Positions 13,669 to 51,340 of a stretch of 64,000 nt of DNA are shown here, piece by piece. The notes beneath the pieces were generated by a model. It did not search any database, was not told the origin of the DNA, and worked only from the letters and a program-made list of their open reading frames with translations. Source of the stretch: Bacteroidales bacterium UBA1184 (GTDB lineage Bacteria; Bacteroidota; Bacteroidia; Bacteroidales; ML635J-15); NCBI GenBank assembly GCA_002310235.1, contig DBYO01000024.1:25246-89245 (forward strand), written 5' to 3'. Both the position numbers and the translations under genes were made by a program. Position 1 is the stretch's first letter, and every line of letters starts with the position of its first letter.

Positions 13669-13700
13669 AGGAAAGATTCAAGAATTAGCTTCGATGATGC

Positions 13701-13821
13701 AAAAATTCAATAATTTAAAAATTCAAAGATTCAATAATTTAAAAATTCAAGGATTTGAGGGTTTGAAGATTTGAGGATTTGAGGATTTGAAGATTTGAGG
13801 ATTTGAGGGTTTGAGGATTTG
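13701..13821. repeat. 8-nt periodic tandem array (AAAATTCA/ATAATTTA grading into AGGATTTG/AAGATTTG units)
   Basis: Read directly: ...aaaattcaataatttaaaaattcaaagattcaataatttaaaaattcaaggatttgagggtttgaagatttgaggatttgaggatttgaagatttgagg... Confidence 0.9.
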
Positions 13822-16047: not shown

Positions 16048-16137
16048 AAATTTAAAAATTCAAAAATTTAAAAATTCAATGATTTAAAAATTCAATGATT
16101 TAAAAATTCAATGATTTAAAAATTCAAGAATTCAACG
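16048..16137. repeat. 16-nt (2x8) tandem array AAAATTCAATGATTTA immediately 3' of the giant gene
   Basis: At least three perfect ttaaaaattcaatgat units plus degenerate flanking units. Confidence 0.9.
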
Positions 16138-24820: not shown

Positions 24821-25041
24821 CGAAACGGAAGAACAGGCGGACGGACGGGGCGAAAAGGCTGGAAGGCTAGAAGGCTAAAAGGCTGGAAGGCTAGAAGGCT
24901 GGAAGGCTAGAAGGCTGGAAGGCTAAAAGGCTAAAAGGCTGGAAGGCTAGAAGGCTAGAAGGCTGGAAGGCTAGAAGGCTGGAAGGCGAAAAGGCTAACA
25001 GGCTAACTGGCTAACAGGCGAATAGGCGAAAAGGCTAACAG
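24821..25041. repeat. 8-nt periodic array (AGGCTGGA / AGGCTAGA / AGGCTAAA units, ~25 units)
   Basis: Read directly: ggcgaaaaggctggaaggctagaaggctaaaaggctggaaggctagaaggctggaagg... Confidence 0.9.
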
Positions 25042-25362: not shown

Positions 25363-25457
25363 AGGCGGACAGGCGAACAGGCGGACGGACGGGGCTAAAA
25401 GGCTGGAAGGCGAAAAGGCTAAAAGGCGAACTGGCGAACAGGCTAACGGGCGACCTA
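25363..25457. repeat. Second 8-nt periodic array (xxxxxGGC units). Repeats the AGGCGGACGGACGGGGC.AAAAGGCTGGAAGGC leader seen at ~24834
   Basis: aggcggacaggcgaacaggcggacggacggggctaaaaggctggaaggcgaaaaggctaaaaggcgaactggcgaacaggctaacgggcgacc. Confidence 0.85.
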
Positions 25458-26952: not shown

Positions 26953-29900
26953 CTACTCCACCTTCACTCTTATTCCCGTGCTATGGCTCGTATATTCGGG
27001 TGCGTACATGCTCTGGATAGTCGTTATGCCATTCGAGAAATTACCCTTCTGCGTAGCGATAACCTGATACTCGAACACGTAGGTGCCCTTTGGCAGAATA
27101 TCGATGAAGAAGTTGATGGAAGCATCCTTAATTGCCTGATAGTAGCCCAACGAATGCTTGAACCTATAGCCCGAAAGTTTTTCGGTTGGCTCGAACGCCG
27201 AAGCACGCATATCCTTCAGATGAACATATTCCATGTTGCGGTCAACTTCGATTTCGATGCGGACTGTAACCCTGTCGCCTACCTTGAGGTTGGCATTCTT
27301 CTGCGTGATAGGCACAATGACTTCCGTGCCGTTCTCCACACGGTTGACAAACAAATCCTTGCGAATCTTAAGCGGGGTATCCTCGAAGCCCTTTATCTTG
27401 TCGATGTCCTCAAAGTACTGCCAGTAAATACCGCCCCAAGCCACAGTGCTGTCGGCTTTGGTAACCGAAACATCGCCCCAGGTGCTCGAAATCTCGTCCT
27501 GCTTCCACATTTTCTTGTAGTAGCCGGTGCCGTCCTCGGTAGTTTCGGCAGCAAGGTCTATCTGCTTATCACCAAGAGAAATTACCGGATAGTCGGTTTC
27601 GCTGAGGATGCTTGTACCGTCGAGCAAAAGTGCATAAACGGCTTCGGCAGTGGCCTTGGTGGTCTTCCAGTTGGTAGTCTGCTTCTGCTTCAACAGCCAG
27701 ACTTTCATTTCGTTGACATCGTGAACCTCGCCAATCTCATCGAAAAGTTCAATAAGCAAGGCCTGAGTCTCAATGCCACTGTTGTACCAATACCAACCGC
27801 GCTCCAAATCCCAATACATACCAAGTTCCTCGCTATGCTGTGCATACTCCTTCAACGATGCCACAATATCCTTCACTGTTGCTGTGCGATCGCTGCGCTG
27901 CATTGCCAAGGCAAGCATTCCGCGCATGTAGAAACCCCACGACGGCCAGTCCTTCTCGCCAAGCTTCATATACACATCGAAAACCTTCTGCGTGGATTTG
28001 TCCATAGGGTATTTCTTCAGGAAGAACGAACGTACATATAAATAATGTATCTGAGTGTAACCAAGAGCTACCGCATTGTACTTTTTCTGCAAATCATAAA
28101 TTCTCTCGATTTCCCTGTCGATGTACTTTACAGCCTTCTTAATCATGCCTTCCATCGACGAGTCTGGAAATTTTACACCGAGTTTCTGCAGATGTCCGTA
28201 GTTGCCAACAATGTGCTGGGTGACATATAGGTTGTCGGGCATTCCGTCGAACCACGGGAAACCGCCGTTTGCCTTCTGCATCTTCGACAGTTTGTCGGTG
28301 GCTTTCTTGGTTTCGTCCTTTATGCGGTCAATATCGAAAAGTACACCTATATTATATTTACGTTCAGCTTCGTTTTCGGCATCGAGAAGCCAAGGCGAAT
28401 TTTCGAGCAAAACAGATTTCAGTTCCTCGTTGCGCTGCAGGTTCGACTTCAGAGCCTCGGCATCGGTCGATTTCCACTTGTTGAACATTTCCTCAATCTT
28501 TTTGTCGGAATTTGCCACGTGCGAAGCAATGAGGTTGGAATAAATGCGCGAGAAAGTCTGTTCGGCACATTCGTATGGATATTCCATCATGTAAGGCAGT
28601 GCTAGCACGGCGTACCAAGCCGGATTTGGCGTAAATTCGAGGGTGTATGAGTAGTTTTCGAGTGATTTCGACTTGTTGTTCTTCATAGCGTTGAACGAAA
28701 AATGCGTTGTTCCGGCACGACGCACCGGCAAAGGCATTGTCTCGGTCACCATCATACGATTGGTAAGTATCGGCAACACTTTTTCCTCGCCGTCGGAATG
28801 ACCTTCGGCAATAGCAACAATGCGCACTGCCACCGCGCCAATGCTCTTCGGAACAGAAATTTTCCATTCTACAGAAGTGTTGCGGCTTGCATCGGCAGAG
28901 AATGTTACAATATTGTTTTTCAGGAATTTATCTGTAATATCCTCGGAATTCTGAGTGTTTATGAATTCGATTTTTGCCTTGCCGCTGATTGTGTTTTCGG
29001 TGAGATTTGCGATCTTGGCCGAAATGTACATTTCGTCGCCCTCGCGCATGAAACGCGGCAGGTTTGGCGTTACCGAGACATTTTTCTGAGTTACCAACGA
29101 ACTGCTTACATCGCCTATTTTCATGTCCTTGGTGTGGGCAAGTCCCATCACGTTCCAGCGTGTCATGCTTTCGGGCATTGTGAAATTGATGAAAATATTA
29201 CCGTCCTGGTCGGTGGTAAGATTGCTAGCGAAATAGGCTGTCTCGTTGAAATTGGTACGCACTTCGGCATTGTCGAAAGCTTCGGCTTCCTCTTCAGAGA
29301 GTTCCTCCTCCATTTCAACAGCCTCGTTGAGCGCAACGGCATCGGCGGCTATCAAACTGGACTCCTCTTCGACAACACCTCCGGCAGCATTGGCTCTATA
29401 GAGTACGCGCCCGCTCTTGTAATCGGTTGCGTACGACGAATAGTAAGCACTTAGCACATTGAAGAAAACCGGTGTGGGATAAGGAGTATATTCATAGCGG
29501 TTAGATGCATAGACATAGCGTCTGGAATTGCTGTTTGAGTATCCAAAACCCTTATATTCGAAATTGTAGTTCATCGTATTCGACGAATATGGCCAGAAAT
29601 ACCATGAGTGCGACTTGTACGAATCGAGCGAAGCATCATAGACTGTGGCTGCAAGTTCTGCTTCGATGGGTTTGTCGAACTTGTCGGTAATCTTCATCTG
29701 CCACGACTCCTCTGATCCCGGCAAGGTCTTGTCGCGGAAAGTCACCAACTTGACATCCAATTGCTTATCGACGCGCGAAACGCTTATGGTTTTGCTTTCC
29801 TTATATGCTCTGCCATGACGCACAAAGATCGCAGTGACAAACACATCACCGTAGCACTTTTCGGTAATCGGAATATCAAAGCTCTTAACCTCGTTGCTCA

Positions 29901-32811
29901 GCTTCATGCTCTTTATTTCGAGTGCGCCCTTGCCTATCTGCAGTGTGTAGAAAACAGTAACATCGTCGAACGACGAACCAATACGCACCTGCACCTTATC
30001 GCCCACCTTTGCCGAGTATTTCGACACTTTGAAGTACGACGCCATTGGGTACGACATCTTGTCCGACGAGTTGTCGGTGATGTGGAAGTTTGTGGTGTCG
30101 GCTACCGGGTTGCCGTCCTTGTCCTTGGCAGTCATTATTATGCGATAGGAACCTGGCGTGAACTTCATCTTTTTGGTGATGGCGATTGGGGTTGTGTCGG
30201 CAGTATTCACAGAGCCTTTCAACATCGACGATGTAACTTTGCGATTATACAGCGTATTTTCGTCGCCATAGCCGAGTGCGGGACAAAGTTTTTCCCACTC
30301 CTCGCGGCTGTACATCTGCATGTCGGCGGTCTTTAGCCTTGCCACGGTTGCATGCGACGGCTCCTCGAGCTTGAAGATTTCGTAATCGACAGTCGCATCG
30401 ATGTGGCTGCCCGAAATGTTTTCGCTATATATTTTGAAGCTGTTGAAGTCGGCAATGTCAACGGTTTCGGAAATACTATTCGAAATCCATAGCGACTGGC
30501 GCGAAACCATGAACGACCTTTCTATGGTATGCGATTCGCCGTTGATGTCGGCAACTACAGCCGAAATTCTGTAACGGTTGGTATTGCTAAAGCACTGCTT
30601 GGCGACAAAACTAATGGTAAACTCACCGTTTTCGTCGGTCTTGATGGTTCCGTCGGCAAGAAGTTTCTTTTCGGAATTGCTATAACTCCACCAATAATAC
30701 GAATACGAAGAGCAGTTGACGGTGAAATTGACGTCGGCACCGCTGACGGGCACACCCGAATAGCTTTTTGCACGTCCCTTGATGCTTACCGAGTCGCCAA
30801 ACGACACCTCATCCTTAATGTAGTCCATCTCTATCTCGAAGGTAGGACGCTTGTATTCCTCCACTTTGATGTATTCCGAACCCGACGAGAATCCAGTACC
30901 GCGAGCTTCGATGTGGAAATTACCGGTAAGTACGTTTTCGGGAATCTTGAATTCACCATTAACACTTCCATACTGGTTAGATTTAAGATTTAGCGTAGCT
31001 ATTTCCTTGTAGTTGACATCCTTAAGCGTGACTTTTATGCTATCGTTAGGCACAACACTGAAATTGTTGTCCTTGCCGCGGTATTCGATAGCCTTGAAAT
31101 ACACGGTCTGTCCCGGACGATAAATCGCCCTGTCGGTGAATATCTTAATCGATGTGCGCTCCTTTTCTACCTCGTCCTGCTGGTAGTATCCGTAAACCGA
31201 GAAGCACATGTCGTCGTTGTCCTTTTTCAAGTAAATAATTGTGTTGTAATTGCATTTTTTTGTATCGAAACTGAAAATGCCATCGGCAGCGGTTTCGGTG
31301 TTAAGTAAGGTTTCGGTCTTGTTGTAGTCGCGCGTGGTGACTTTCACCTTTACCTTGTCGATAGGCTTGCCAGAATTTCGGTCAACAGCCATGTATTTGC
31401 CATCGTCGATGCGAAGCAAAGCAAAGCGAGAAACTGTGAGCATGGTAAAACTCTCGATTCTGGAGCTGTCGCTTTCGGCAAAGACAAGATAGAAACCTGT
31501 AGGCAGACCTTTTTCCACATAGTAGGTGCTGTGGGTAGAATAATCGTGAGCATCGGGAAGATTTATAGTGCCTTCGGTTACAGACTTACTTTCGTAGTAT
31601 TTGTTTACATTGGCTGAATTGGTATTGAAAGTTTCGTATTCCGAAGCCTTGTCCGACACTTTTACAACCTTGATTTTAGCTGTTTTTGTATTGGCATATT
31701 CAATGTAAAGCGGAATATTTTCGTTTGGATAAGTAACCTTGTCACCCGATATGCTTATTGATGGAAATGTGAGTTTAGAAAGCAGGTTGGAGCAATGGGT
31801 TACATACTTGCTATCCTTAAACTCTTCAATTGTGGAGGTCAGAAGGTTCACAGCCTCGATGCGGTCGGCAGCTGATTTTTTCGACAGACGGTCGGCAATC
31901 TCCTTGTTGATGAAAATCACGCTTTCGTTGCCCTTGTATTGTTTTGCGGCATCGGTGAAAAGTTCCATGATAAGGTCGTCCTTACCGCTTTGCTTGCTTG
32001 CGATATAACATATGCGGCGGTAGTCGGTAAATGCGTAAGCACTACTGTTGGGTTTGTTTTCTTTAAGCATCTGTTGCATGAAAAACAAAGTCGCCATTTC
32101 GGGATTTTGGTCGGTGTCGAGGATTTCTATTTTTGAGAAATCGTCGGCATTGCAAAAGAAGCTGTTGTCCAAATTGGTGCCTGTATATCTGTATAGTTTT
32201 GCAAGCTGATTGATAATCGAATATGCAATTTCATCGTAAAGTGTTGGGAAAAAGTCGTTTTCCTTGTTGTTGTCTCTGAAAAATTCCTTGTAATCGTCGG
32301 CAGCGACATTTTTCAGTTCGGCATTCAGCGCCAGCTTGTAATGACTGATTATCAGCTTCATGAACTCGTTTTTGTCGTAAAATTCGAGGCGCGAACCTTT
32401 TTTGTCGGCAGAATCGCTCACTGCCGAACGCGAATCGATCTGATAGCGATGACGCGAGTAGTAGTTCTGATACGAAGCACCGAGTAGGAAATTGCAAACA
32501 TGCTTACATGTGCCCGACTGGATTTTGGCTTGTTCCTCAAGAAAATCGACGGCTTTAAGGTTGCCGGTCTGCTCCGACTCGATAAGGAACTTGGTTTTGT
32601 ATGTTATTGCTTTTAACTGCTGATATGCATCGTTGTCCTTGGTTGCCATGTCGAGAATACTTTCGACCTTCTGCAAGGCGCTCTTGGGCAGATCCCTGTT
32701 TTCAAAACCAGTGACCTCGATCCACAATTTCTTGTATTTGTCGTCGGTTGTCTGAGCAAATGCAGAAACTGCCAATGCTACAAAAATAATTAAGGTTACT
32801 ATCTTCTTCAT
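26953..32811 (-). CDS. Bacterial alpha-2-macroglobulin family protein with thioester motif
   Basis: About 1950 aa with a signal peptide (MKKIVTLIIFVALAVSAFAQ). YPYECAEQTF thioester CxEQ motif at nt 28558-28569, and long MG-domain-like beta-rich repeats. Track start 32817 is TTG; ATG at 32811 is preferred. Confidence 0.9.
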   Translation of the reverse strand: MKKIVTLIIFVALAVSAFAQTTDDKYKKLWIEVTGFENRDLPKSALQKVESILDMATKDNDAYQQLKAITYKTKFLIESEQTGNLKAVDFLEEQAKIQSGTCKHVCNFLLGASYQNYYSRHRYQIDSRSAVSDSADKKGSRLEFYDKNEFMKLIISHYKLALNAELKNVAADDYKEFFRDNNKENDFFPTLYDEIAYSIINQLAKLYRYTGTNLDNSFFCNADDFSKIEILDTDQNPEMATLFFMQQMLKENKPNSSAYAFTDYRRICYIASKQSGKDDLIMELFTDAAKQYKGNESVIFINKEIADRLSKKSAADRIEAVNLLTSTIEEFKDSKYVTHCSNLLSKLTFPSISISGDKVTYPNENIPLYIEYANTKTAKIKVVKVSDKASEYETFNTNSANVNKYYESKSVTEGTINLPDAHDYSTHSTYYVEKGLPTGFYLVFAESDSSRIESFTMLTVSRFALLRIDDGKYMAVDRNSGKPIDKVKVKVTTRDYNKTETLLNTETAADGIFSFDTKKCNYNTIIYLKKDNDDMCFSVYGYYQQDEVEKERTSIKIFTDRAIYRPGQTVYFKAIEYRGKDNNFSVVPNDSIKVTLKDVNYKEIATLNLKSNQYGSVNGEFKIPENVLTGNFHIEARGTGFSSGSEYIKVEEYKRPTFEIEMDYIKDEVSFGDSVSIKGRAKSYSGVPVSGADVNFTVNCSSYSYYWWSYSNSEKKLLADGTIKTDENGEFTISFVAKQCFSNTNRYRISAVVADINGESHTIERSFMVSRQSLWISNSISETVDIADFNSFKIYSENISGSHIDATVDYEIFKLEEPSHATVARLKTADMQMYSREEWEKLCPALGYGDENTLYNRKVTSSMLKGSVNTADTTPIAITKKMKFTPGSYRIIMTAKDKDGNPVADTTNFHITDNSSDKMSYPMASYFKVSKYSAKVGDKVQVRIGSSFDDVTVFYTLQIGKGALEIKSMKLSNEVKSFDIPITEKCYGDVFVTAIFVRHGRAYKESKTISVSRVDKQLDVKLVTFRDKTLPGSEESWQMKITDKFDKPIEAELAATVYDASLDSYKSHSWYFWPYSSNTMNYNFEYKGFGYSNSNSRRYVYASNRYEYTPYPTPVFFNVLSAYYSSYATDYKSGRVLYRANAAGGVVEEESSLIAADAVALNEAVEMEEELSEEEAEAFDNAEVRTNFNETAYFASNLTTDQDGNIFINFTMPESMTRWNVMGLAHTKDMKIGDVSSSLVTQKNVSVTPNLPRFMREGDEMYISAKIANLTENTISGKAKIEFINTQNSEDITDKFLKNNIVTFSADASRNTSVEWKISVPKSIGAVAVRIVAIAEGHSDGEEKVLPILTNRMMVTETMPLPVRRAGTTHFSFNAMKNNKSKSLENYSYTLEFTPNPAWYAVLALPYMMEYPYECAEQTFSRIYSNLIASHVANSDKKIEEMFNKWKSTDAEALKSNLQRNEELKSVLLENSPWLLDAENEAERKYNIGVLFDIDRIKDETKKATDKLSKMQKANGGFPWFDGMPDNLYVTQHIVGNYGHLQKLGVKFPDSSMEGMIKKAVKYIDREIERIYDLQKKYNAVALGYTQIHYLYVRSFFLKKYPMDKSTQKVFDVYMKLGEKDWPSWGFYMRGMLALAMQRSDRTATVKDIVASLKEYAQHSEELGMYWDLERGWYWYNSGIETQALLIELFDEIGEVHDVNEMKVWLLKQKQTTNWKTTKATAEAVYALLLDGTSILSETDYPVISLGDKQIDLAAETTEDGTGYYKKMWKQDEISSTWGDVSVTKADSTVAWGGIYWQYFEDIDKIKGFEDTPLKIRKDLFVNRVENGTEVIVPITQKNANLKVGDRVTVRIEIEVDRNMEYVHLKDMRASAFEPTEKLSGYRFKHSLGYYQAIKDASINFFIDILPKGTYVFEYQVIATQKGNFSNGITTIQSMYAPEYTSHSTGIRVKVE

Positions 32812-32845
32812 ATTCAAATTGATGTTTCAATGTTTATTATAAACG

Positions 32846-32905: not shown

Positions 32906-32957
32906 AGTTGAAAGTTCAAAGTTGAAAGTTGAAAGAAGTTCAAGGTTCAACGTTCAA
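32906..32957. repeat. 7-nt periodic array (AGTTGAA/AGTTCAA) upstream of ssb
   Basis: agttgaaagttcaaagttgaaagttgaaagaagttcaaggttcaacgttcaaaa. Confidence 0.85.
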
Positions 32958-32973
32958 AATCGTAAAAAATATT

Positions 32974-34854: not shown

Positions 34855-35440
34855 GATTCTTGCTATAATACTAGTCGTAGGACTTGCGATGCTTTGCGCC
34901 TGTGGCGAAAAAGCTTACGCGCCACGTCCCAGAGGCTATTTCCGCATCGATTTTCCAGAGAAAACCTATAAGCAGTACAACGGCGAATGCCCTTTCACGT
35001 TCGAGATTCCAGAATATTCGTATCTAATAAAGGAGAAGGAAGACAATTGCTGGTTCGACATCTATTTCCCGAAGTACAAGGCAACAGTGTATTTGACCTA
35101 CCGTGGCATAGACAACAGCAAATACAGCGAAATAGACACACTGCTCAACGATGCCCACGACTTTGCATACAAACACACCATAAAAGCCGACGCCATTGAG
35201 GAAAACATTTTCGAGAAGGATTCGTCGCGGGTTTACGGATGCCTATATAACATCAAAGGGAATGTAGCCTCACAGGTACAGTTTTTCCTCACCGACAGCA
35301 CTACGCATTTCATGCGCGGCTCGCTATATTTCGAAGCACGCCCCAACAAGGATTCGCTTGCCCCAGTGGTCGATTTTGTCCGCGAGGACATCGAACATTT
35401 TATGGAGAGTTTTGAGTGGAAGGATTCAAAAATTCAATGA
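34844..35440 (+). CDS. gldD: Gliding-motility/T9SS-associated lipoprotein GldD
   Basis: MKNKILAIILVVGLAMLCACG lipobox and PRPRGYFRIDFPEKTY, typical of the GldD N-terminus. Overlaps the gldE stop by 11 nt. ATG at 34844 is chosen over the track start 34808. Confidence 0.75.
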   Translation: MKNKILAIILVVGLAMLCACGEKAYAPRPRGYFRIDFPEKTYKQYNGECPFTFEIPEYSYLIKEKEDNCWFDIYFPKYKATVYLTYRGIDNSKYSEIDTLLNDAHDFAYKHTIKADAIEENIFEKDSSRVYGCLYNIKGNVASQVQFFLTDSTTHFMRGSLYFEARPNKDSLAPVVDFVREDIEHFMESFEWKDSKIQ

Positions 35441-35541
35441 TTCAAAGATTCAATGATTCAAAGATTCAACAATTTGAAAATTTGGCTTACGCCGAGCTAA
35501 AGGTTGATGATTTGAAAATTTGATGATTTGAAAATTCAAAT
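35423..35541. repeat. 8-nt periodic array (A..ATTCA then A..ATTTG units) overlapping the gldD stop, interrupted by a 22-nt unrelated motif
   Basis: gattcaaaaattcaatgattcaaagattcaatgattcaaagattcaacaatttgaaaatttg[GGCTTACGCCGAGCTAAAGGTT]gatgatttgaaaatttgatgatttgaaaattcaaa. Confidence 0.85.
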
Positions 35542-35579: not shown

Positions 35580-36305
35580 TTGTTAATTCATAAATCCATA
35601 TTACCTGACAATTCCCTTCTAGCCTTCTGGAAAATGGAGGAGACTGAGGAGCAGCTGCGCACAATGTGCGACCTGTGCGACGAAGACCTGAAGGTAATCG
35701 GGAACAACTCAGCCCACAAGCGCCGCATAGAACTGCTATCGGTACGGGCATTGCTAAAGGCTGTCGGCATAAACCAGACAATACACTACAACGACCGTAG
35801 GCCATATCTCAACAAAGGCTACATCTCGATAAGCCATTCTGCCGACATTGCCGCAATAATCTATAATCCCGACTTCCCGGTCGGCATCGACATCGAAAAA
35901 ATATCGCCAAAGATACAACACATAGCCTCACGTGTATTCTCCGACAAGGAACTTGCAGCAGCCAATGGCGACCTTGAAAAACTGACCGTCCTCTGGAACT
36001 GCAAGGAGTGCGTCGTCAAGCTTTCAAACGACGATGGTATCGATTTCCAGGAAATGATAGAAGTAGATATACCATCCGATTTTTTGCTTCAGGATAATAT
36101 CTGCCAAGAAAAACCCATTGTCAACCTTCAGCTCAGCGAAGCTAATTATCCATTATCAATTGTACATTATCAATTACCCATTATCCATTGTACATTAAAA
36201 AAATCAGAGCACACTAAGGTTTTCTCGCTTTCCGCGATGAAAATTGAAGGAAATACTGTTGTGTGGGGAAGGCTTGATGATTGGACTGGAGGCAGACACA
36301 TATAG
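35580..36305 (+). CDS. 4'-phosphopantetheinyl transferase superfamily protein (Sfp-type)
   Basis: SISHSADIAAII, GIDIEKIS and LWNCKECVVK motifs. The only in-frame start upstream of the conserved LLAFWKMEETEEQL segment is TTG at 35580. The C-terminal third carries a copy of an intergenic-type repeat (36140-36200). Confidence 0.65.
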   Translation: MLIHKSILPDNSLLAFWKMEETEEQLRTMCDLCDEDLKVIGNNSAHKRRIELLSVRALLKAVGINQTIHYNDRRPYLNKGYISISHSADIAAIIYNPDFPVGIDIEKISPKIQHIASRVFSDKELAAANGDLEKLTVLWNCKECVVKLSNDDGIDFQEMIEVDIPSDFLLQDNICQEKPIVNLQLSEANYPLSIVHYQLPIIHCTLKKSEHTKVFSLSAMKIEGNTVVWGRLDDWTGGRHI

Positions 36306-36318
36306 CCAGCAAGCCTGC

Positions 36319-36350
36319 CTTTCAATTTTCAACTTTCAATTTTCAACTTT
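36319..36350. repeat. 7-nt periodic array (CTTTCAA/TTTTCAA) after the PPTase gene
   Basis: ctttcaattttcaactttcaattttcaacttt. Confidence 0.85.
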
Positions 36351-36415: not shown

Positions 36416-37978
36416 ATGAAAAGATTGATAGTATTAGCATTGGCAACATTATTTTTGTCTTTTGCAGCAAATGCTCAGATTGGCAACCTGATTAGAAACA
36501 AGCTCAACCAGAAGGTCGAAGAAGGTGTAAACAATGCCATCGACAAGGCAGTTGACAATGCCGTTGACAAGACTTTCGAGAATACGCAGAAAGCCATTGA
36601 AAAGGAAAAGAACGACAACTCCAAAACAGTTCACGACGATGCTCACGACAATGGTGGCTGGACTTGTCCGGCATGTGGAGCAAAAGGTAATACCGGTAAT
36701 TTCTGCAAGGAATGTGCAGCCAAGAAGCCTGGAGCATCATCACAGGAAACCAACACTGCTGACGAAAGCGGTTGGACCTGCCCTGCCTGCGGACACAAGG
36801 GCAACAATGGCAAGTTCTGCAACGAGTGCGGAGCCAAGAAGCCCGAAGAGTCGACCGCTTCGGCAACTTGGAAGTGTGAAAAATGCGGACACGAAGGCAA
36901 CAAGGGTAAGTTCTGCGACGAGTGCGGTGCTCCGAAGGGCGCAGTAAATGTTGAAGGAAAGAAAAGCGACTTCGTCCCTGGTGAAATTGTAATTTTCGAA
37001 GATAAAGTTATTGGAGAACAAGTTGGGGAATTCCCTTCAAAATGGGATCTTGTAAGAGGAAATGCAGAAATTGCAAGAGTTGGAGGAGAATTAGCCATTG
37101 CAATGAATAAAGATGACAGTTGGATTTCACCATTGATGAAAGACGGCAGCAAGAATTATCTCGGCGATGTTTTCACGATTGAGTATGATATGCTTTTTGA
37201 TGACACTGAAAAGAATGGCGCACCATCCATAGAACTTGATATTATGAATGAAAATTCAAGTCGCGACAATGAACTTTTCACTATTACATATTGGTTGGGA
37301 GGCGACAGACACAGTTTTGATTGCCACTATTGTCTTTCATCAGAATCTTCTTTTACATACAAACAAGGTAGTTCTAGGTCAGAATCAGGAACTTATAACG
37401 ATGGAAAATGGCATCATTACGCATTGTCCTTCAACAAGAGAGCTATTAAGTTCTATGTAGATGGAAATAGAATTATCAATGTTCCTAATGCTAAGCCTGG
37501 AGCTGGCTGGGTAACATTGTTTTCAAGTGGAGGAAGCAAGGATACTTATATTAAGAACTTCCGCATTGGAAAGGGTGCTGTGGAACTCTATGACCGCAAT
37601 GCTACGGACATAACTGAGGTAGAAAGAGCTATCGCTCAGAGTGGGAAATTTGTAACCAACAATATTCTCTTTGTAACAGGAAAGGCAGACCTAAAGCCTG
37701 AGAGCATGGAGGAAATCAAGAAGGTTGCAGAATATATGAAGAAGAATCCTAATGCAAGGTTTGAGGTTCAAGGTCACTGCGACAACCAAGGTTCTGACCA
37801 GGTAAACGACCCATTGTCGGAACAAAGGGCTCAAGCTGTTGTAAAGGCACTTGTTGATTTGGGTTGCGACAGTTTCAATCTTAGGGCTGTTGGCAAGGGT
37901 TCACACGAACCAGTTGCTGACAATAGTACTGAAGAAGGTAGAGCCAAGAACAGAAGGGTAGAATTTGTGAAGAAATAA
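36416..37978 (+). CDS. OmpA-family protein with three tandem zinc-ribbon-like repeats and a LamG/ConA-like domain
   Basis: Signal peptide MKRLIVLALATLFLSFAANAQ. Three repeats of GWTCPACG.KGN.GKFC.ECGAKKP (nt 36658-36940). KWHHYALSF / IKFYVDG is LamG-like. C-terminal OmpA_C region (FVTGKADL...RAKNRRVEF). Confidence 0.8.
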   Translation: MKRLIVLALATLFLSFAANAQIGNLIRNKLNQKVEEGVNNAIDKAVDNAVDKTFENTQKAIEKEKNDNSKTVHDDAHDNGGWTCPACGAKGNTGNFCKECAAKKPGASSQETNTADESGWTCPACGHKGNNGKFCNECGAKKPEESTASATWKCEKCGHEGNKGKFCDECGAPKGAVNVEGKKSDFVPGEIVIFEDKVIGEQVGEFPSKWDLVRGNAEIARVGGELAIAMNKDDSWISPLMKDGSKNYLGDVFTIEYDMLFDDTEKNGAPSIELDIMNENSSRDNELFTITYWLGGDRHSFDCHYCLSSESSFTYKQGSSRSESGTYNDGKWHHYALSFNKRAIKFYVDGNRIINVPNAKPGAGWVTLFSSGGSKDTYIKNFRIGKGAVELYDRNATDITEVERAIAQSGKFVTNNILFVTGKADLKPESMEEIKKVAEYMKKNPNARFEVQGHCDNQGSDQVNDPLSEQRAQAVVKALVDLGCDSFNLRAVGKGSHEPVADNSTEEGRAKNRRVEFVKK

Positions 37979-37987
37979 TATGTAACA

Positions 37988-38212
37988 ATGTCGCGCTTAC
38001 AATTGAACAAAATAGAATACCTCGTATGCTGCATAGGAAGTTTTGCTGAGCGTTTCGCTATTACAAATGCAAAAGCTTATAACTATCTTGGCAAGTATGG
38101 AGGATTTGACTTTCTTATCAAGCACTACGACATTGAACATACATTCTCGATTGACGAAGCAATAAATGATATCACAAGAATCTGTAGCCGCAACGGAGGA
38201 TATTTGCAATGA
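37988..38212 (+). CDS. DUF3791-like small protein
   Basis: 74 aa. IEYLVCCIGSFAERFAI...AYNYLGKYGGFDFLIKHYDIEHT matches my recollection of the DUF3791 pattern. Its stop overlaps the next start (ATGA). Confidence 0.55.
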   Translation: MSRLQLNKIEYLVCCIGSFAERFAITNAKAYNYLGKYGGFDFLIKHYDIEHTFSIDEAINDITRICSRNGGYLQ

Positions 38213-38691
38213 TACATCTTTTCCATGGTTCGAACATTCCGATAGAAGTCATCGACTTTTCTTTTTGCCATAAAGGGAAAGACTTTGGTCGTGGTTTTTA
38301 TCTAAGTGACAACCTAGAACAGGCAGAAAAGATGGCTAAGCTTGTTACATACAGAGAGGAATTTGGAGAACCTACTGTCAGTTCTTTCATGTTCGACGAA
38401 TCTTGCATGACTAATGGTATATTATCGGTAAAGCGTTTCGATTCATATAGCGCAGAGTGGGCAAACTTTATCATTCAAAACCGAACACACAAGCAAGATA
38501 CGAACATTCATTCCTACGATATTATATATGGTCCAATCGCTAATGATACTGTTGGCGTACAAATTCGCAGGTTCATGCAACAATATATAGATGTTGAGAG
38601 GCTAATCGAAGAATTAAAATACATACATCCTACTTTCCAGTACTATTTTGGAACCGAAACAGCATTGCAATACCTAAAGAAAATAAAATGA
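38209..38691 (+). CDS. DUF3990-like protein (possible ART-fold enzyme)
   Basis: 160 aa. LFHGS ... GRGFYLS ... YDIIYGPIANDTVG ... QYYFGTETAL matches my recollection of DUF3990. ATGA overlaps on both sides. Confidence 0.6.
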   Translation: MIHLFHGSNIPIEVIDFSFCHKGKDFGRGFYLSDNLEQAEKMAKLVTYREEFGEPTVSSFMFDESCMTNGILSVKRFDSYSAEWANFIIQNRTHKQDTNIHSYDIIYGPIANDTVGVQIRRFMQQYIDVERLIEELKYIHPTFQYYFGTETALQYLKKIK

Positions 38692-38933
38692 CTGTAGAGG
38701 AAAAACATAAGAACGATGTACAATTCCTGATAGAATGTCTCTCGCAGGACTTAGTTGTCATGATTATGGAAGATTTAGGCGTTGAACTGAGGCAGGCGTT
38801 TGACATATTGTACAATTCTCATACTTATAGAAAGTTGGAAAACGAATCCACGGGACTATGCTATCAGAGCAGCGTATATGTATTCGATTATCTGATGAAC
38901 GAACTAAAATCACAGCAGAGAGGAATAATGTAA
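38688..38933 (+). CDS. Second DUF3791-like small protein
   Basis: 81 aa helical protein (FLIECLSQDL...AFDILYNSHTYRKLENESTGL) in the position usually held by a second DUF3791 gene. Confidence 0.5.
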   Translation: MTVEEKHKNDVQFLIECLSQDLVVMIMEDLGVELRQAFDILYNSHTYRKLENESTGLCYQSSVYVFDYLMNELKSQQRGIM

Positions 38934-39404: not shown

Positions 39405-40067
39405 ATGATTATGAAAAAAAATGTTTTAATACAGATTCTTGTTTTATTGGCATTAGTATTCGCCAATGCAGGGTTCGCACAGACATATATGCCCGAAAAG
39501 GTCGGCACAAAAATCACCTACGTTGACAAGGACGCAAAGGGCAAGATAATACAGGCCTTCAGGTACGAGATAACCGACGTACAGAAGGACGAAGGCAAGA
39601 CCACAATACTTTTCGACATTGTTTGGCTGAAGGACAACTTCAAGGAGACTGGCGAAGTGTATAAGGGCAAGGTTTGGAGTGCCGACGGCTATTTCCACAC
39701 CGACGTACGCTATGCTCTCGGTTCGCTGGCTTCGATGGTAAATATCGACTCGATAAAGGGTCACACCATTATCCTTCCAGAACATCCGTCGAATGGCGAA
39801 AAGCTCGACGACTGCCACATTACTGGTCCCGGCATAGGCATTAACAATACCAACATTGCCGTTACCACCGGACAGAGCGTAACAACCAACGCCGGCACAT
39901 TCGACTGCATCCGCGTTGATTCGGAAGACAGCGCACAGATACTTTTCGTAAAGGTAAACGTAAGCTCAAAGCAGTGGTGGAAACTTGGCGTAGGCGCCAT
40001 AAAGTACGAATCGTACAACAAGAAAGGCAAGATGACGCTCAACAGGGAACTGTACTCTATAGAGTAG
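39405..40067 (+). CDS. Hypothetical secreted protein
   Basis: Signal peptide (MKKNVLIQILVLLALVFANAGFAQ) and beta-rich composition. An alternative ATG lies at 39411. Confidence 0.6.
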   Translation: MIMKKNVLIQILVLLALVFANAGFAQTYMPEKVGTKITYVDKDAKGKIIQAFRYEITDVQKDEGKTTILFDIVWLKDNFKETGEVYKGKVWSADGYFHTDVRYALGSLASMVNIDSIKGHTIILPEHPSNGEKLDDCHITGPGIGINNTNIAVTTGQSVTTNAGTFDCIRVDSEDSAQILFVKVNVSSKQWWKLGVGAIKYESYNKKGKMTLNRELYSIE

Positions 40068-40125
40068 TTGAGAGTTGAGAGTTGAAAGTTGAGAGTTGAA
40101 AGTTGAGAGTTGAAAGTTGAAAGTC
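40066..40125. repeat. 7-nt periodic array (AGTTGAG/AGTTGAA) starting at the stop codon of 39405..40067
   Basis: tagttgagagttgagagttgaaagttgagagttgaaagttgagagttgaaagttgaaagt. Confidence 0.9.
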
Positions 40126-43242: not shown

Positions 43243-43280
43243 GTTTTAATACATTTGCACAAAGCATTACACAACTGCCA

Positions 43281-43322
43281 ACTGTTAACTTTCAACTTTA
43301 AACTTTCAACTCTCAACTCAAA
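43281..43322. repeat. 7-nt periodic array (CTTTCAA family) between convergent genes
   Basis: actgttaactttcaactttaaactttcaactctcaactcaaa. Confidence 0.8.
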
Positions 43323-50730: not shown

Positions 50731-51315
50731 ATGGACAAAACCACAAAAATAGCGTTATTTGCCTCTGGCTCAGGTACAAACGTCGAAAATATAGCAAATT
50801 ATTTCAATGGCAAAACCACCGCGAAACCCGTATGTGTGCTCTGCAACAAGCCCGACGCCTACGTTCTGGAGCGAGCAAAACGTCTAGGACTCGACTCGAT
50901 GACCTTCAACCGCGCCGATTTCAACGACGGAAAACGAATAATGGAATACCTTAATAAATATAACATCGACATGATAGTCCTCGCTGGCTTCCTCTGGCTG
51001 GTTCCACAGTACCTAATCGATGCTTATCCAGGTCGCATAGTGAACATACACCCGGCGTTGTTGCCAAAGTTCGGAGGAAAGGGCATGTACGGCATGCACG
51101 TACATGAGGCCGTGAAGCAGAGCGGCGAAACCGAAACCGGCATCACCATCCACCTCATCGACGGCAACTACGACCAGGGCAGCACGGTTTTCCAGGCAAA
51201 GGTGCAGGTTAGCCCCAACGACTCTCCCGACGACATAGCAACCAAGGTACACGCACTCGAATACGAATATTATCCAAAAGTGATAGAAGAAATAGCAAAA
51301 TCAGTTAAAAGTTAA
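50731..51315 (+). CDS. purN: Phosphoribosylglycinamide formyltransferase
   Basis: ALFASGSGTN, IVLAGFLWLVP and NIHPALLPKFGGKGMYG motifs. 194 aa. Confidence 0.9.
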   Translation: MDKTTKIALFASGSGTNVENIANYFNGKTTAKPVCVLCNKPDAYVLERAKRLGLDSMTFNRADFNDGKRIMEYLNKYNIDMIVLAGFLWLVPQYLIDAYPGRIVNIHPALLPKFGGKGMYGMHVHEAVKQSGETETGITIHLIDGNYDQGSTVFQAKVQVSPNDSPDDIATKVHALEYEYYPKVIEEIAKSVKS

Positions 51316-51340
51316 AAGTTGAAAGTTGGAAGTTTATAGT
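51297..51340. repeat. 7-nt periodic array (AAGTTAA/AAGTTGA) spanning the purN stop
   Basis: aaatcagttaaaagttaaaagttgaaagttggaagtttatagtt. Confidence 0.8.

Follow-up and report, generated by a model that had tools for sequence, protein, structure and literature searches.

A coupled DUF3791–DUF3990 triad in a Bacteroidales genome belongs to the catalogued candidate system PDC-M13 and encodes a protein with a predicted ADP-ribosyltransferase fold

In a 64,000-nt stretch of the genome of Bacteroidales bacterium UBA1184 (assembly GCA_002310235.1, contig DBYO01000024.1, positions 25,246 to 89,245 of the forward strand; hereafter the window), three small genes overlap each other on the + strand and encode proteins that we call P1, P2 and P3. 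The triad is an ordinary member of PDC-M13, a system already catalogued as a phage defense candidate, and its middle protein, P2, is predicted to have an ADP-ribosyltransferase (ART) fold. We lean, if only somewhat, to the view that the triad is a three-component toxin-antitoxin or abortive-infection module built around an ART toxin. The initial annotation of this DNA, which proposed an ART-fold toxin with two small partners, was largely right in this respect, and the existing catalog entry is a point that was absent from it.

The triad is a member of PDC-M13

The P1 gene (37988–38212, +; 74 aa) and the P2 gene (38209–38691, +; 160 aa) share an ATGA stop/start overlap at 38209–38212, and the P2 and P3 genes (P3, 38688–38933, +; 81 aa) share another one at 38688–38691, a layout of translational coupling. 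These three coupled open reading frames (ORFs), as described in the initial annotation, were confirmed by the ORF list, by the sequence itself and by gene calling done independently on cow-rumen metagenome contigs of the same species, which carry the identical three genes of 74, 160 and 81 aa. In PADLOC-DB, each protein matched over its full length a different component of one system, P1 being PDC-M13A (PDLC04435, E = 1.6e-24), P2 PDC-M13B (PDLC04438, E = 2.6e-45) and P3 PDC-M13C (PDLC04444, E = 1.3e-16), and the PADLOC matches of the three proteins were confined to PDC-M13, M10 and M42. The window triad has the same A, B and C proteins in the same order as PDC-M13, with no structural difference. 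The PDC systems are 145 phage defense candidates collected via “guilt-by-embedding”, as cassettes that lie within BREX, DISARM and type I restriction-modification (RM) loci (Payne et al., bioRxiv 10.1101/2024.01.29.577857). PDC-M13 is among the most frequent defense-type calls in rumen genomes and metagenome-assembled genomes (MAGs), with 3324 loci (PMC13356809), and the triad is very common in gut and rumen Bacteroidales.

P2 is predicted to have an ART fold

From its motifs, the middle protein had been recognized as DUF3990, and the Pfam model of this family (PF13151) matched P2 with E = 3.9e-45 (153.7 bits against a cut-off of 32.2) over profile positions 2–151 of 152. DUF3990 is placed in the ART clan of Pfam (PMC7955679). 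P2 also matched the ART-PolyVal family (PF18760) weakly (E = 0.042, 15.1 bits against a gathering score of 31.2, residues 3–44 aligned), and at the sequence level 43 of 56 diverse DUF3990 proteins matched this family (best E = 1.3e-6), while two of the 56 matched the PARP profile, at E = 0.04. The comparison with DarT, Tpt1/KptA (PTS_2-RNA) and PARP profiles that the initial annotation had proposed yielded no match of P2 in Pfam at E ≤ 0.1, and neither did RES or CmdT; PHROGs gave a weak match for P2 and NCBIfam nothing useful. Protein Data Bank (PDB) sequence searches with profiles of P1, P2 and P3 found nothing significant, and since the P2 searches were empty, no close relative of P2 appears to have a solved structure.

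The AlphaFold2 (AF2) model of P2, built on 40 homologues (pLDDT 92.8, pTM 0.86), contains strands at residues 2–8, 30–33, 56–62, 74–76, 105–109, 143–147 and 156–158. In a Foldseek search of the PDB with this model the matches were weak and ranks 1–20 were all ART-superfamily proteins, including the RES toxin, tankyrases, Arr, KptA, PARP-1 and diphtheria toxin. The best of them was the RES toxin of an Xre-RES pair (9r35_A; E = 5.5e-3, Foldseek probability 0.98, TM 0.46–0.50). Among the predicted viral structures of BFVD, the top match was a viral relative (E = 4e-12, TM 0.75), followed by many phage ART-PolyVal proteins, such as that of Salmonella phage Mutine (E = 1.2e-6). P2 is thus predicted to adopt the ART fold, and ART-PolyVal is the closest family to it both by sequence and by modeled fold. 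The clan membership and the ART-only structural matches place P2 within the ART clan, as the initial annotation had supposed. The family is large: 5409 clusters at 50% identity matched the DUF3990 profile, 2044 of them at E ≤ 1e-10, and standalone forms of 156–170 aa predominate in the best 150 of the 5409 cluster representatives.

Candidate catalytic residues of P2

The motifs quoted for the middle protein in the initial annotation are all present in P2, namely LFHGS (residues 4–8), GRGFYLS (27–33), YDIIYGPIANDT (103–114) and QYYFGTETAL (144–153). We examined residue conservation in 98 DUF3990 representatives of at most 50% mutual identity, counting at each column the sequences that have a residue there. 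H6 and Y31 are invariant (92/92 and 93/93), while S or T occupies position 8 in 89 of 92 sequences and position 33 in 89 of 93. The conserved N-terminal motifs are H6-G7-[ST]8 and D25-F26-G27-x-G29-F30-Y31-x-[TS]33; W84 and N91-R92 are conserved in the central region, and the C-terminal region contains D104-[IV]-[IV]-x-G108-P109-[VI]-A111-[DN]-D113 and Q144-[YI]-x-F-x-[TS]. The window copy has every one of them intact.

Strand 1 of the AF2 model carries H-G-[ST], and strand 2 carries G-F-Y-x-[ST]. With a His at the end of strand 1 and a Tyr in strand 2, the modeled P2 fits the H-Y clade of ARTs, for which the signature H-Y-[EDQ] has been described. The initial annotation had proposed an H-Y-E core, of which the fold and the invariant His and Tyr hold up and the Glu does not. 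E150, the Glu of the GTE sequence, is kept in only 28 of 83 representatives, which leaves D104, D113 or Q144 for this position: D104 is kept in 94 of 95 and directly precedes the fifth strand (105–109), Q144 is kept in 82 of 84 and lies in the sixth strand (143–147), and D113 is kept in 83 of 93. Because E150 is poorly kept and D104 and Q144 are near-invariant, ‘H-Y-E’ should read ‘H-Y-[D/Q]’. The Q-[YI]-x-F strand of Q144 may be likened to the E-Y-I-V strand of PARP and diphtheria toxin. The candidates for the third catalytic position are therefore D104 and Q144, as named from conservation and from strand positions in the model.

P1 and P3 are treated as separate families

Both flanking proteins had been taken for DUF3791, which is correct for P1 but was not borne out for P3. 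P1 matched DUF3791 (PF12668) with E = 1.8e-22 (79.5 bits against a cut-off of 25) over profile positions 1–60 of 60, and its AF2 model (pLDDT 86) consists of four helices, for which Foldseek found no fold match in the PDB (best E = 1.8). P3, which is predicted to be helical as well, had no Pfam match at E ≤ 0.1. BLASTP of P1 against P3 found nothing, comparison of the two families by hidden Markov models gave E ≥ 0.04, and the hhalign probability was 11–16%. Only four of the 53 members of the P3 family touched PF12668, weakly (best E = 0.0052, below the cut-off), and in a natural fusion of a P3-like and a P1-like protein on plasmid pBF9343 (see below), Pfam DUF3791 spans the P1-like half only. 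We therefore rejected the idea that P1 and P3 are paralogues and handled them as separate families; a relationship of P3 to DUF3791 is not demonstrable from these sequences, although a very distant kinship remains conceivable. Since P3 has no significant match to DUF3791 or P1, it defines a separate domain family that lacks a Pfam model.

A direct database search with P3 returned P3 alone and one with P1 only five relatives; the P1 and P3 family alignments were built instead from the flanking ORFs of the genome loci described below. The P1 family conserves Y47, H51-T52-x-S54, D61, C66 and the near-C-terminal G70-G71, all of which are present in the window copy. The P3 family (53 sequences) conserves E16, A37, Y42, S44, T46, L57, Y64, L69 and E72, with the consensus ...ALDxLYxSxTYxKLExPxTGLYYQSxVYVF..LxxE, and is very acidic (median pI 4.4). 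Neither P1 nor P3 matched a helix-turn-helix (HTH), ribbon-helix-helix (RHH) or AbrB family in Pfam. A likeness of P1 to IclR-HTH (E = 0.41) is at chance level and has no fold match in the PDB beside it, leaving P1 as an HTH antitoxin unsupported, and a likeness of P3 to the UBA region of TDP2 (E = 0.013) was also taken as chance level.

Gene order and natural fusions

From 581 relatives in species-representative genomes we fetched 80 loci, which together with the window make 81. A P1-like gene, a DUF3990 gene and a P3-like gene stand in exactly that order in 70 of the 81, and the others comprise tandem pairs of divergent triads (three loci), triads cut by a contig end (three), triads with an extra P3-like gene (two), a split DUF3990 gene beside intact partners (two) and an ORF-calling artefact (one). 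Co-occurrence of the three genes, which the initial annotation had made a condition of its reading, is obligate or almost universal in the loci examined, and the triad is not a chance arrangement, as the same three families recur in the same order across loci. The overlaps are conserved too: of 78 P1/P2 junctions, 63 have an overlap of exactly 4 nt, and so have 37 of 77 P2/P3 junctions, the remainder of the latter lying within ~10 nt.

The tandem triads (locus L032, 1180–3558; L034, 3833–5731; L066, 3603–5552) encode partners that are 21–35% identical to those of the window, which suggests duplicated modules with diverged specificity. In the two loci with a split DUF3990 gene, two ORFs take the place of one (L050, 4974–5483; L072, 2676–3155), which could reflect either pseudogenization of the toxin or a sequencing error.

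Natural fusions link the components in several ways. Of the best 150 DUF3990 representatives, 14 carry a C-terminal P3-like domain (E = 2e-19 to 3e-4). On pBF9343, a 149-aa protein joins a P3-like part (residues 19–78, E = 2e-16) to a P1-like part (residues 83–148, E = 8e-11), and its gene overlaps the downstream DUF3990 gene by 4 nt. One further representative, P0255, may be a DUF3791-like::DUF3990 fusion, with weak evidence. Because these fusions link parts of the triad to each other, they suggest that the three proteins work in one complex.

Hosts, plasmids and viral contigs

The triad hosts among the species-representative genomes are mainly Bacteroidales (Prevotella/Segatella, Bacteroides, Phocaeicola, Paludibacteraceae and Muribaculaceae), with some Firmicutes. 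Relatives are carried by 86 plasmids of Bacteroides, Phocaeicola, Parabacteroides, Clostridium, Moraxella and others. On pBF9343 of B. fragilis (NC_006873.1; locus L110, 3555–5615), the pair formed by the fusion gene and the DUF3990 gene stands directly upstream of a hypothetical/zeta-toxin pair. There an 86-aa hypothetical gene, right after the DUF3990 gene, overlaps a zeta-toxin family gene, so that two putative toxin modules adjoin, and an OmpA family gene lies ~1.1 kb upstream.

A search of 2.9 million viral contigs found 29 relatives. The viral-contig relatives, at only 27–34% identity, retain the P1-P2-P3 order, apart from L081, in which it is permuted to P3-P1-DUF3990. A group of near-identical viral or prophage contigs of the human gut from IMG/VR (L088–L107) carries a distant triad (~30% identity) with a fourth, DUF3791-like gene downstream. 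In other viral contigs, the DUF3990 gene is followed by a 4-nt-overlapping gene for a 155-aa protein whose N-terminal part resembles DUF3791. Examples of these viral loci are L096 5732–7126, L083 5986–6914 and L095 5941–6914.

The locus and its neighbors

The triad lies between an OmpA-family gene, whose stop codon is 9 nt upstream of the P1 start, and a lipoprotein-like gene that starts 22 nt after P3, which agrees with the position given in the initial annotation. This OmpA-triad-lipoprotein arrangement is common to the window, a syntenic MAG (L001) and all conspecific contigs. The triad has a GC content of 35–38%, compared with 45–50% in nearby housekeeping genes, and is 58–82% identical to that of L001, compared with 92% for the downstream neighbor genes. 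Between the window and its two nearest relatives (L001 and L002), dN is 0.10–0.33 for the three genes and dS is saturated, and this low dN despite saturated dS indicates purifying selection on all three. A dedicated promoter or terminator was considered and rejected: a sigma-70-type scan gave sites no more numerous than in shuffled sequences, and no + strand terminator was found inside the triad. A candidate Bacteroides -7 box at 37959–37967 was dropped because of its inexact fit to TAnnTTTG.

Discussion

The likeness to a toxin-antitoxin or defense module noted in the initial annotation is upheld by the compact coupled operon, the conserved overlaps and the patchy, mobile distribution. In the mechanism that we propose for such a module, P1, P2 and P3 would be made together via ATGA translational coupling, and P2, a minimal NAD+-binding enzyme of the ART fold, would be inactive inside a ternary complex with P1 and P3. 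A trigger, such as infection by a phage or the loss of the replicon on which the module lies, would disturb this complex and free P2, which would then ADP-ribosylate an essential target with NAD+, or consume NAD+, so that growth stops. Because P3 is often permanently fused to the toxin, we favor the all-helical P1 as the main neutralizer; P3 might then have a regulatory or sensing role, either in cis or in trans, much as in fused toxin-antitoxins. That P2 is toxic and that P1 and P3 neutralize it is what we infer rather than observe, and the same holds for the trigger, target and chemistry; for toxicity, the use of DUF3990 as an Rhs toxin tip and the split toxin genes offer indirect support. 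The conflict-related, mobile character of the module is backed by variable flanks, tandem and split copies, plasmid carriage, low GC content and divergence relative to the neighboring genes.

Several known systems resemble the triad in part. CmdTAC is a toxin-antitoxin-chaperone system with an mRNA ADP-ribosyltransferase, which phage infection activates and which blocks growth (PMC11618068). It has three components, with an ART-fold effector restrained by two partners, and is the best tested analogy for the way in which the triad might work; however, it is not homologous, and the triad has helical partners of 74–81 aa, no SecB-like chaperone and the order small-ART-small. Xre-RES and MbcTA, which the triad may also resemble in its mode of action, likewise use a minimal ART-fold toxin of ~145–160 aa in a toxin-antitoxin module, and RES proteins (9r35_A and 6gw6_A) are the best solved-structure matches of P2, yet at TM 0.45–0.50 and 11–14% identity, with Pfam RES unmatched; the catalytic signature there is R-E-S, against H/Y/D-or-Q in P2, and the triad lacks an Xre-type HTH antitoxin. 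DarTG shares an ART-fold toxin in a compact toxin-antitoxin or defense operon but differs in that the triad has no match to DarT in Pfam or PADLOC and no macrodomain antitoxin, and near-neutral P2 contrasts with the basic, DNA-binding DarT. As the profiles are unmatched and the partners differ, the triad is not a member of CmdTAC, Xre-RES/MbcTA, DarTG, Tpt1 or PARP. With ART-PolyVal, P2 has the N-terminal H-G-[ST] and G-x-Y-x-[ST] region in common, but ART-PolyVal domains sit in very large multidomain polyvalent proteins of phages and conjugative elements, whereas P2, at 160 aa, stands alone and has two small partners dedicated to it. Finally, DUF3990 is the C-terminal toxin tip of the T6SS (type VI secretion system) Rhs effectors Rhs5 of Serratia and RhsA of Enterobacter (PMC4524185, PMC10763514). 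These tips are the same Pfam domain as P2 deployed as a delivered antibacterial toxin, while P2 has no Rhs, PAAR or other delivery region and is coupled to small genes on both sides. Like a type II toxin-antitoxin system, the triad is a compact, co-directional, coupled operon of patchy, mobile distribution, but neither P1 nor P3 is a recognizable DNA-binding autoregulatory antitoxin.

A number of observations weigh against a toxin-based defense module. The neighbors in the window (CorC, GldD, PPTase, OmpA-like, lipoproteins and aldehyde dehydrogenase) are housekeeping genes and not a defense island, and an empty-site search with the exact downstream protein found the triad at this place in every conspecific contig, with no presence/absence polymorphism. 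Across the sampled loci the flanking genes vary and are mostly heterogeneous housekeeping or uncharacterized genes, few being of defense type (AAA-ATPase_like with PDDEXK_9, AAA_21, EcoRI methylase and BrxL), and a defense-island context was accordingly rejected. P1 and P3 show no DNA-binding, protease-labile or other recognizable antitoxin domain, and the frequent permanent fusion of P3 to the toxin does not fit a simple labile antitoxin. ARTs that modify nucleic acids are typically basic, unlike the near-neutral P2 family (median pI 6.4). If Q144 is the structural equivalent of the Glu of PARP and diphtheria toxin, this would weaken the case for classical transferase chemistry. In agreement with the initial annotation, no experimental work on the module came up in a full-text literature search on DUF3990, DUF3791, PF13151 and PDC-M13. 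The anti-phage role of PDC-M13 itself has bioinformatic candidate status only (bioRxiv 10.1101/2024.01.29.577857), so that membership in it supplies no mechanism.

Some of these observations would suit a module that serves plasmid or genomic-island addiction only, in which P2 as toxin and P1 and P3 as neutralizers are selected for the stability of the carrier DNA through post-segregational killing and not for phage defense. We think this unlikely. The 86 plasmid records, which include the widespread pBF9343 family with the module beside a zeta-toxin pair in an apparent maintenance region, are in line with it, as are the housekeeping setting of the window triad and the mere 29 relatives among the viral contigs; however, PDC-M13 was derived from copies inside BREX, DISARM and RM-I loci (bioRxiv 10.1101/2024.01.29.577857), and the copies are mostly chromosomal, as seen from the 581 matches in species-representative genomes. 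Moreover, addiction and abortive infection are not mutually exclusive in toxin-antitoxin modules. Within a toxin-based module, the arrest could come from NAD+ depletion, with P2 as an NADase or NAD+ phosphorylase like RES/MbcT, but to this we give little credence. The best PDB fold match of P2 is indeed a RES toxin, P2 is small and near-neutral, Q144 may hold the position of the classical catalytic Glu, and no macrodomain, ARH or NADAR reversal enzyme is present among the 25 most frequent flanking Pfam families. Nevertheless, P2 has no R-E-S signature and no match to Pfam RES, its H-G-[ST] and G-F-Y-x-[ST] motifs belong to the transferase H-Y clade, its nearest relatives by sequence and fold are ART-PolyVal proteins, and the TM of 0.46–0.50 to RES fits a shared minimal ART core.

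We regard it as very improbable that, instead of an intracellular toxin-antitoxin, the triad is an orphaned cassette of a polymorphic toxin and its immunity genes, left over from or kept in reserve for T6SS/Rhs competition. DUF3990 does occur as the C-terminal toxin of Rhs effectors, with a small immunity gene next to it (PMC4524185, PMC10763514, PMC12165300). P2, on the other hand, begins at Met1 with its predicted catalytic His at residue 6 and lacks any delivery domain such as PAAR, Rhs or VgrG; genes of these kinds are likewise absent beside the window triad and among the commonest flanking families of the census; at 63 of 78 loci, the small gene upstream shows translational coupling to the toxin gene; and, as noted, standalone forms predominate among the best 150 of the 5409 clusters. 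It would surprise us just as much if P2 were a non-toxic, NAD-dependent modifying enzyme with two regulatory subunits, serving ordinary physiology that is perhaps envelope-linked here. The triads of the window, L001 and L004 do lie 9–23 nt after an OmpA-family gene and 12–43 nt before a lipoprotein gene, gaps short enough that the triad may be co-transcribed with these genes; but only a few related rumen Bacteroidales have this setting, the flanks elsewhere being unrelated, the family is spread patchily over Bacteroidota, Firmicutes and Moraxella plasmids, and the tandem divergent copies, split toxin genes and Rhs toxin use point to a conflict system.

A bolder version of the toxin module is also conceivable, although we hold it only tentatively and rather doubt it: a mechanistically new ART-based immune or addiction system, in which P2 would be an H-Y-[D/Q] enzyme, sister to phage ART-PolyVal, with a new target or chemistry, and the partners would be a neutralizer and a sensor. 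DUF3791 and the acidic ‘Y-x-S-x-T-Y ... G-L-Y-Y-Q’ domain of P3 would then be two previously undescribed helical controllers, and the system would rank among the most abundant defense-type modules of gut and rumen Bacteroidales.

New targets and chemistry have repeatedly come from toxins of the ART fold, among them DarT, CmdT, ParT, RES and RhsP2. DUF3990 is a large branch of the ART superfamily that is found on common Bacteroides plasmids of the pBF9343 type and also as a T6SS Rhs toxin, and knowledge of the P2 target and the partner roles would explain a module that abounds in the gut microbiome and, in all probability, one class of T6SS effectors too. To what was catalogued, the present analysis adds the candidate catalytic residues H6, Y31, D104 and Q144, the recognition of the third gene as a separate domain family without a Pfam model, and natural fusions of three kinds, from which a ternary complex is predicted. 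Although the locus itself is ordinary, its family is a good experimental target and offers tractable access to an ART activity that may be new.

Other features of the window

Inverted heptad arrays at 36319–36350 and 40066–40124 flank the OmpA-triad-lipoprotein block. They were rejected as terminal inverted repeats, since further intergenic sites of the window contain these AGTTGAA arrays as well. Many intergenic regions of the window contain short tandem arrays of 7–8-nt units, usually right after a stop codon, with units that include AGTTGAA/CTTTCAA, AAGGCTAG, GATTCAAA, AGGATTTG and others; for the AGTTGAA-type pattern, the window contains 18 matches where 0.02 would be expected. Besides the two flanking arrays, a first set is located at 32906–32958, 43279–43318 and 51303–51334, and a further set at 13700–13821, 16048–16135, 24849–25038, 25363–25453, 35423–35536 and 36144–36197.

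The OmpA-family protein encoded upstream of the triad (36416–37978, +; 520 aa) has an unusual architecture, which consists of a signal-peptide-like N-terminus, three tandem zinc-ribbon repeats, a ConA/laminin-G-like region and a C-terminal OmpA domain. The zinc-ribbon repeat reads GWTCPACG..GKFC.ECGA, with the corresponding DNA repeats at 36647–36944, and one would not expect zinc ribbons with cysteines in an envelope protein that is exported. Elsewhere in the window, a minus-strand ORF (26953–32817, −) of 1954 aa overlaps several + strand ORFs of more than 100 aa.

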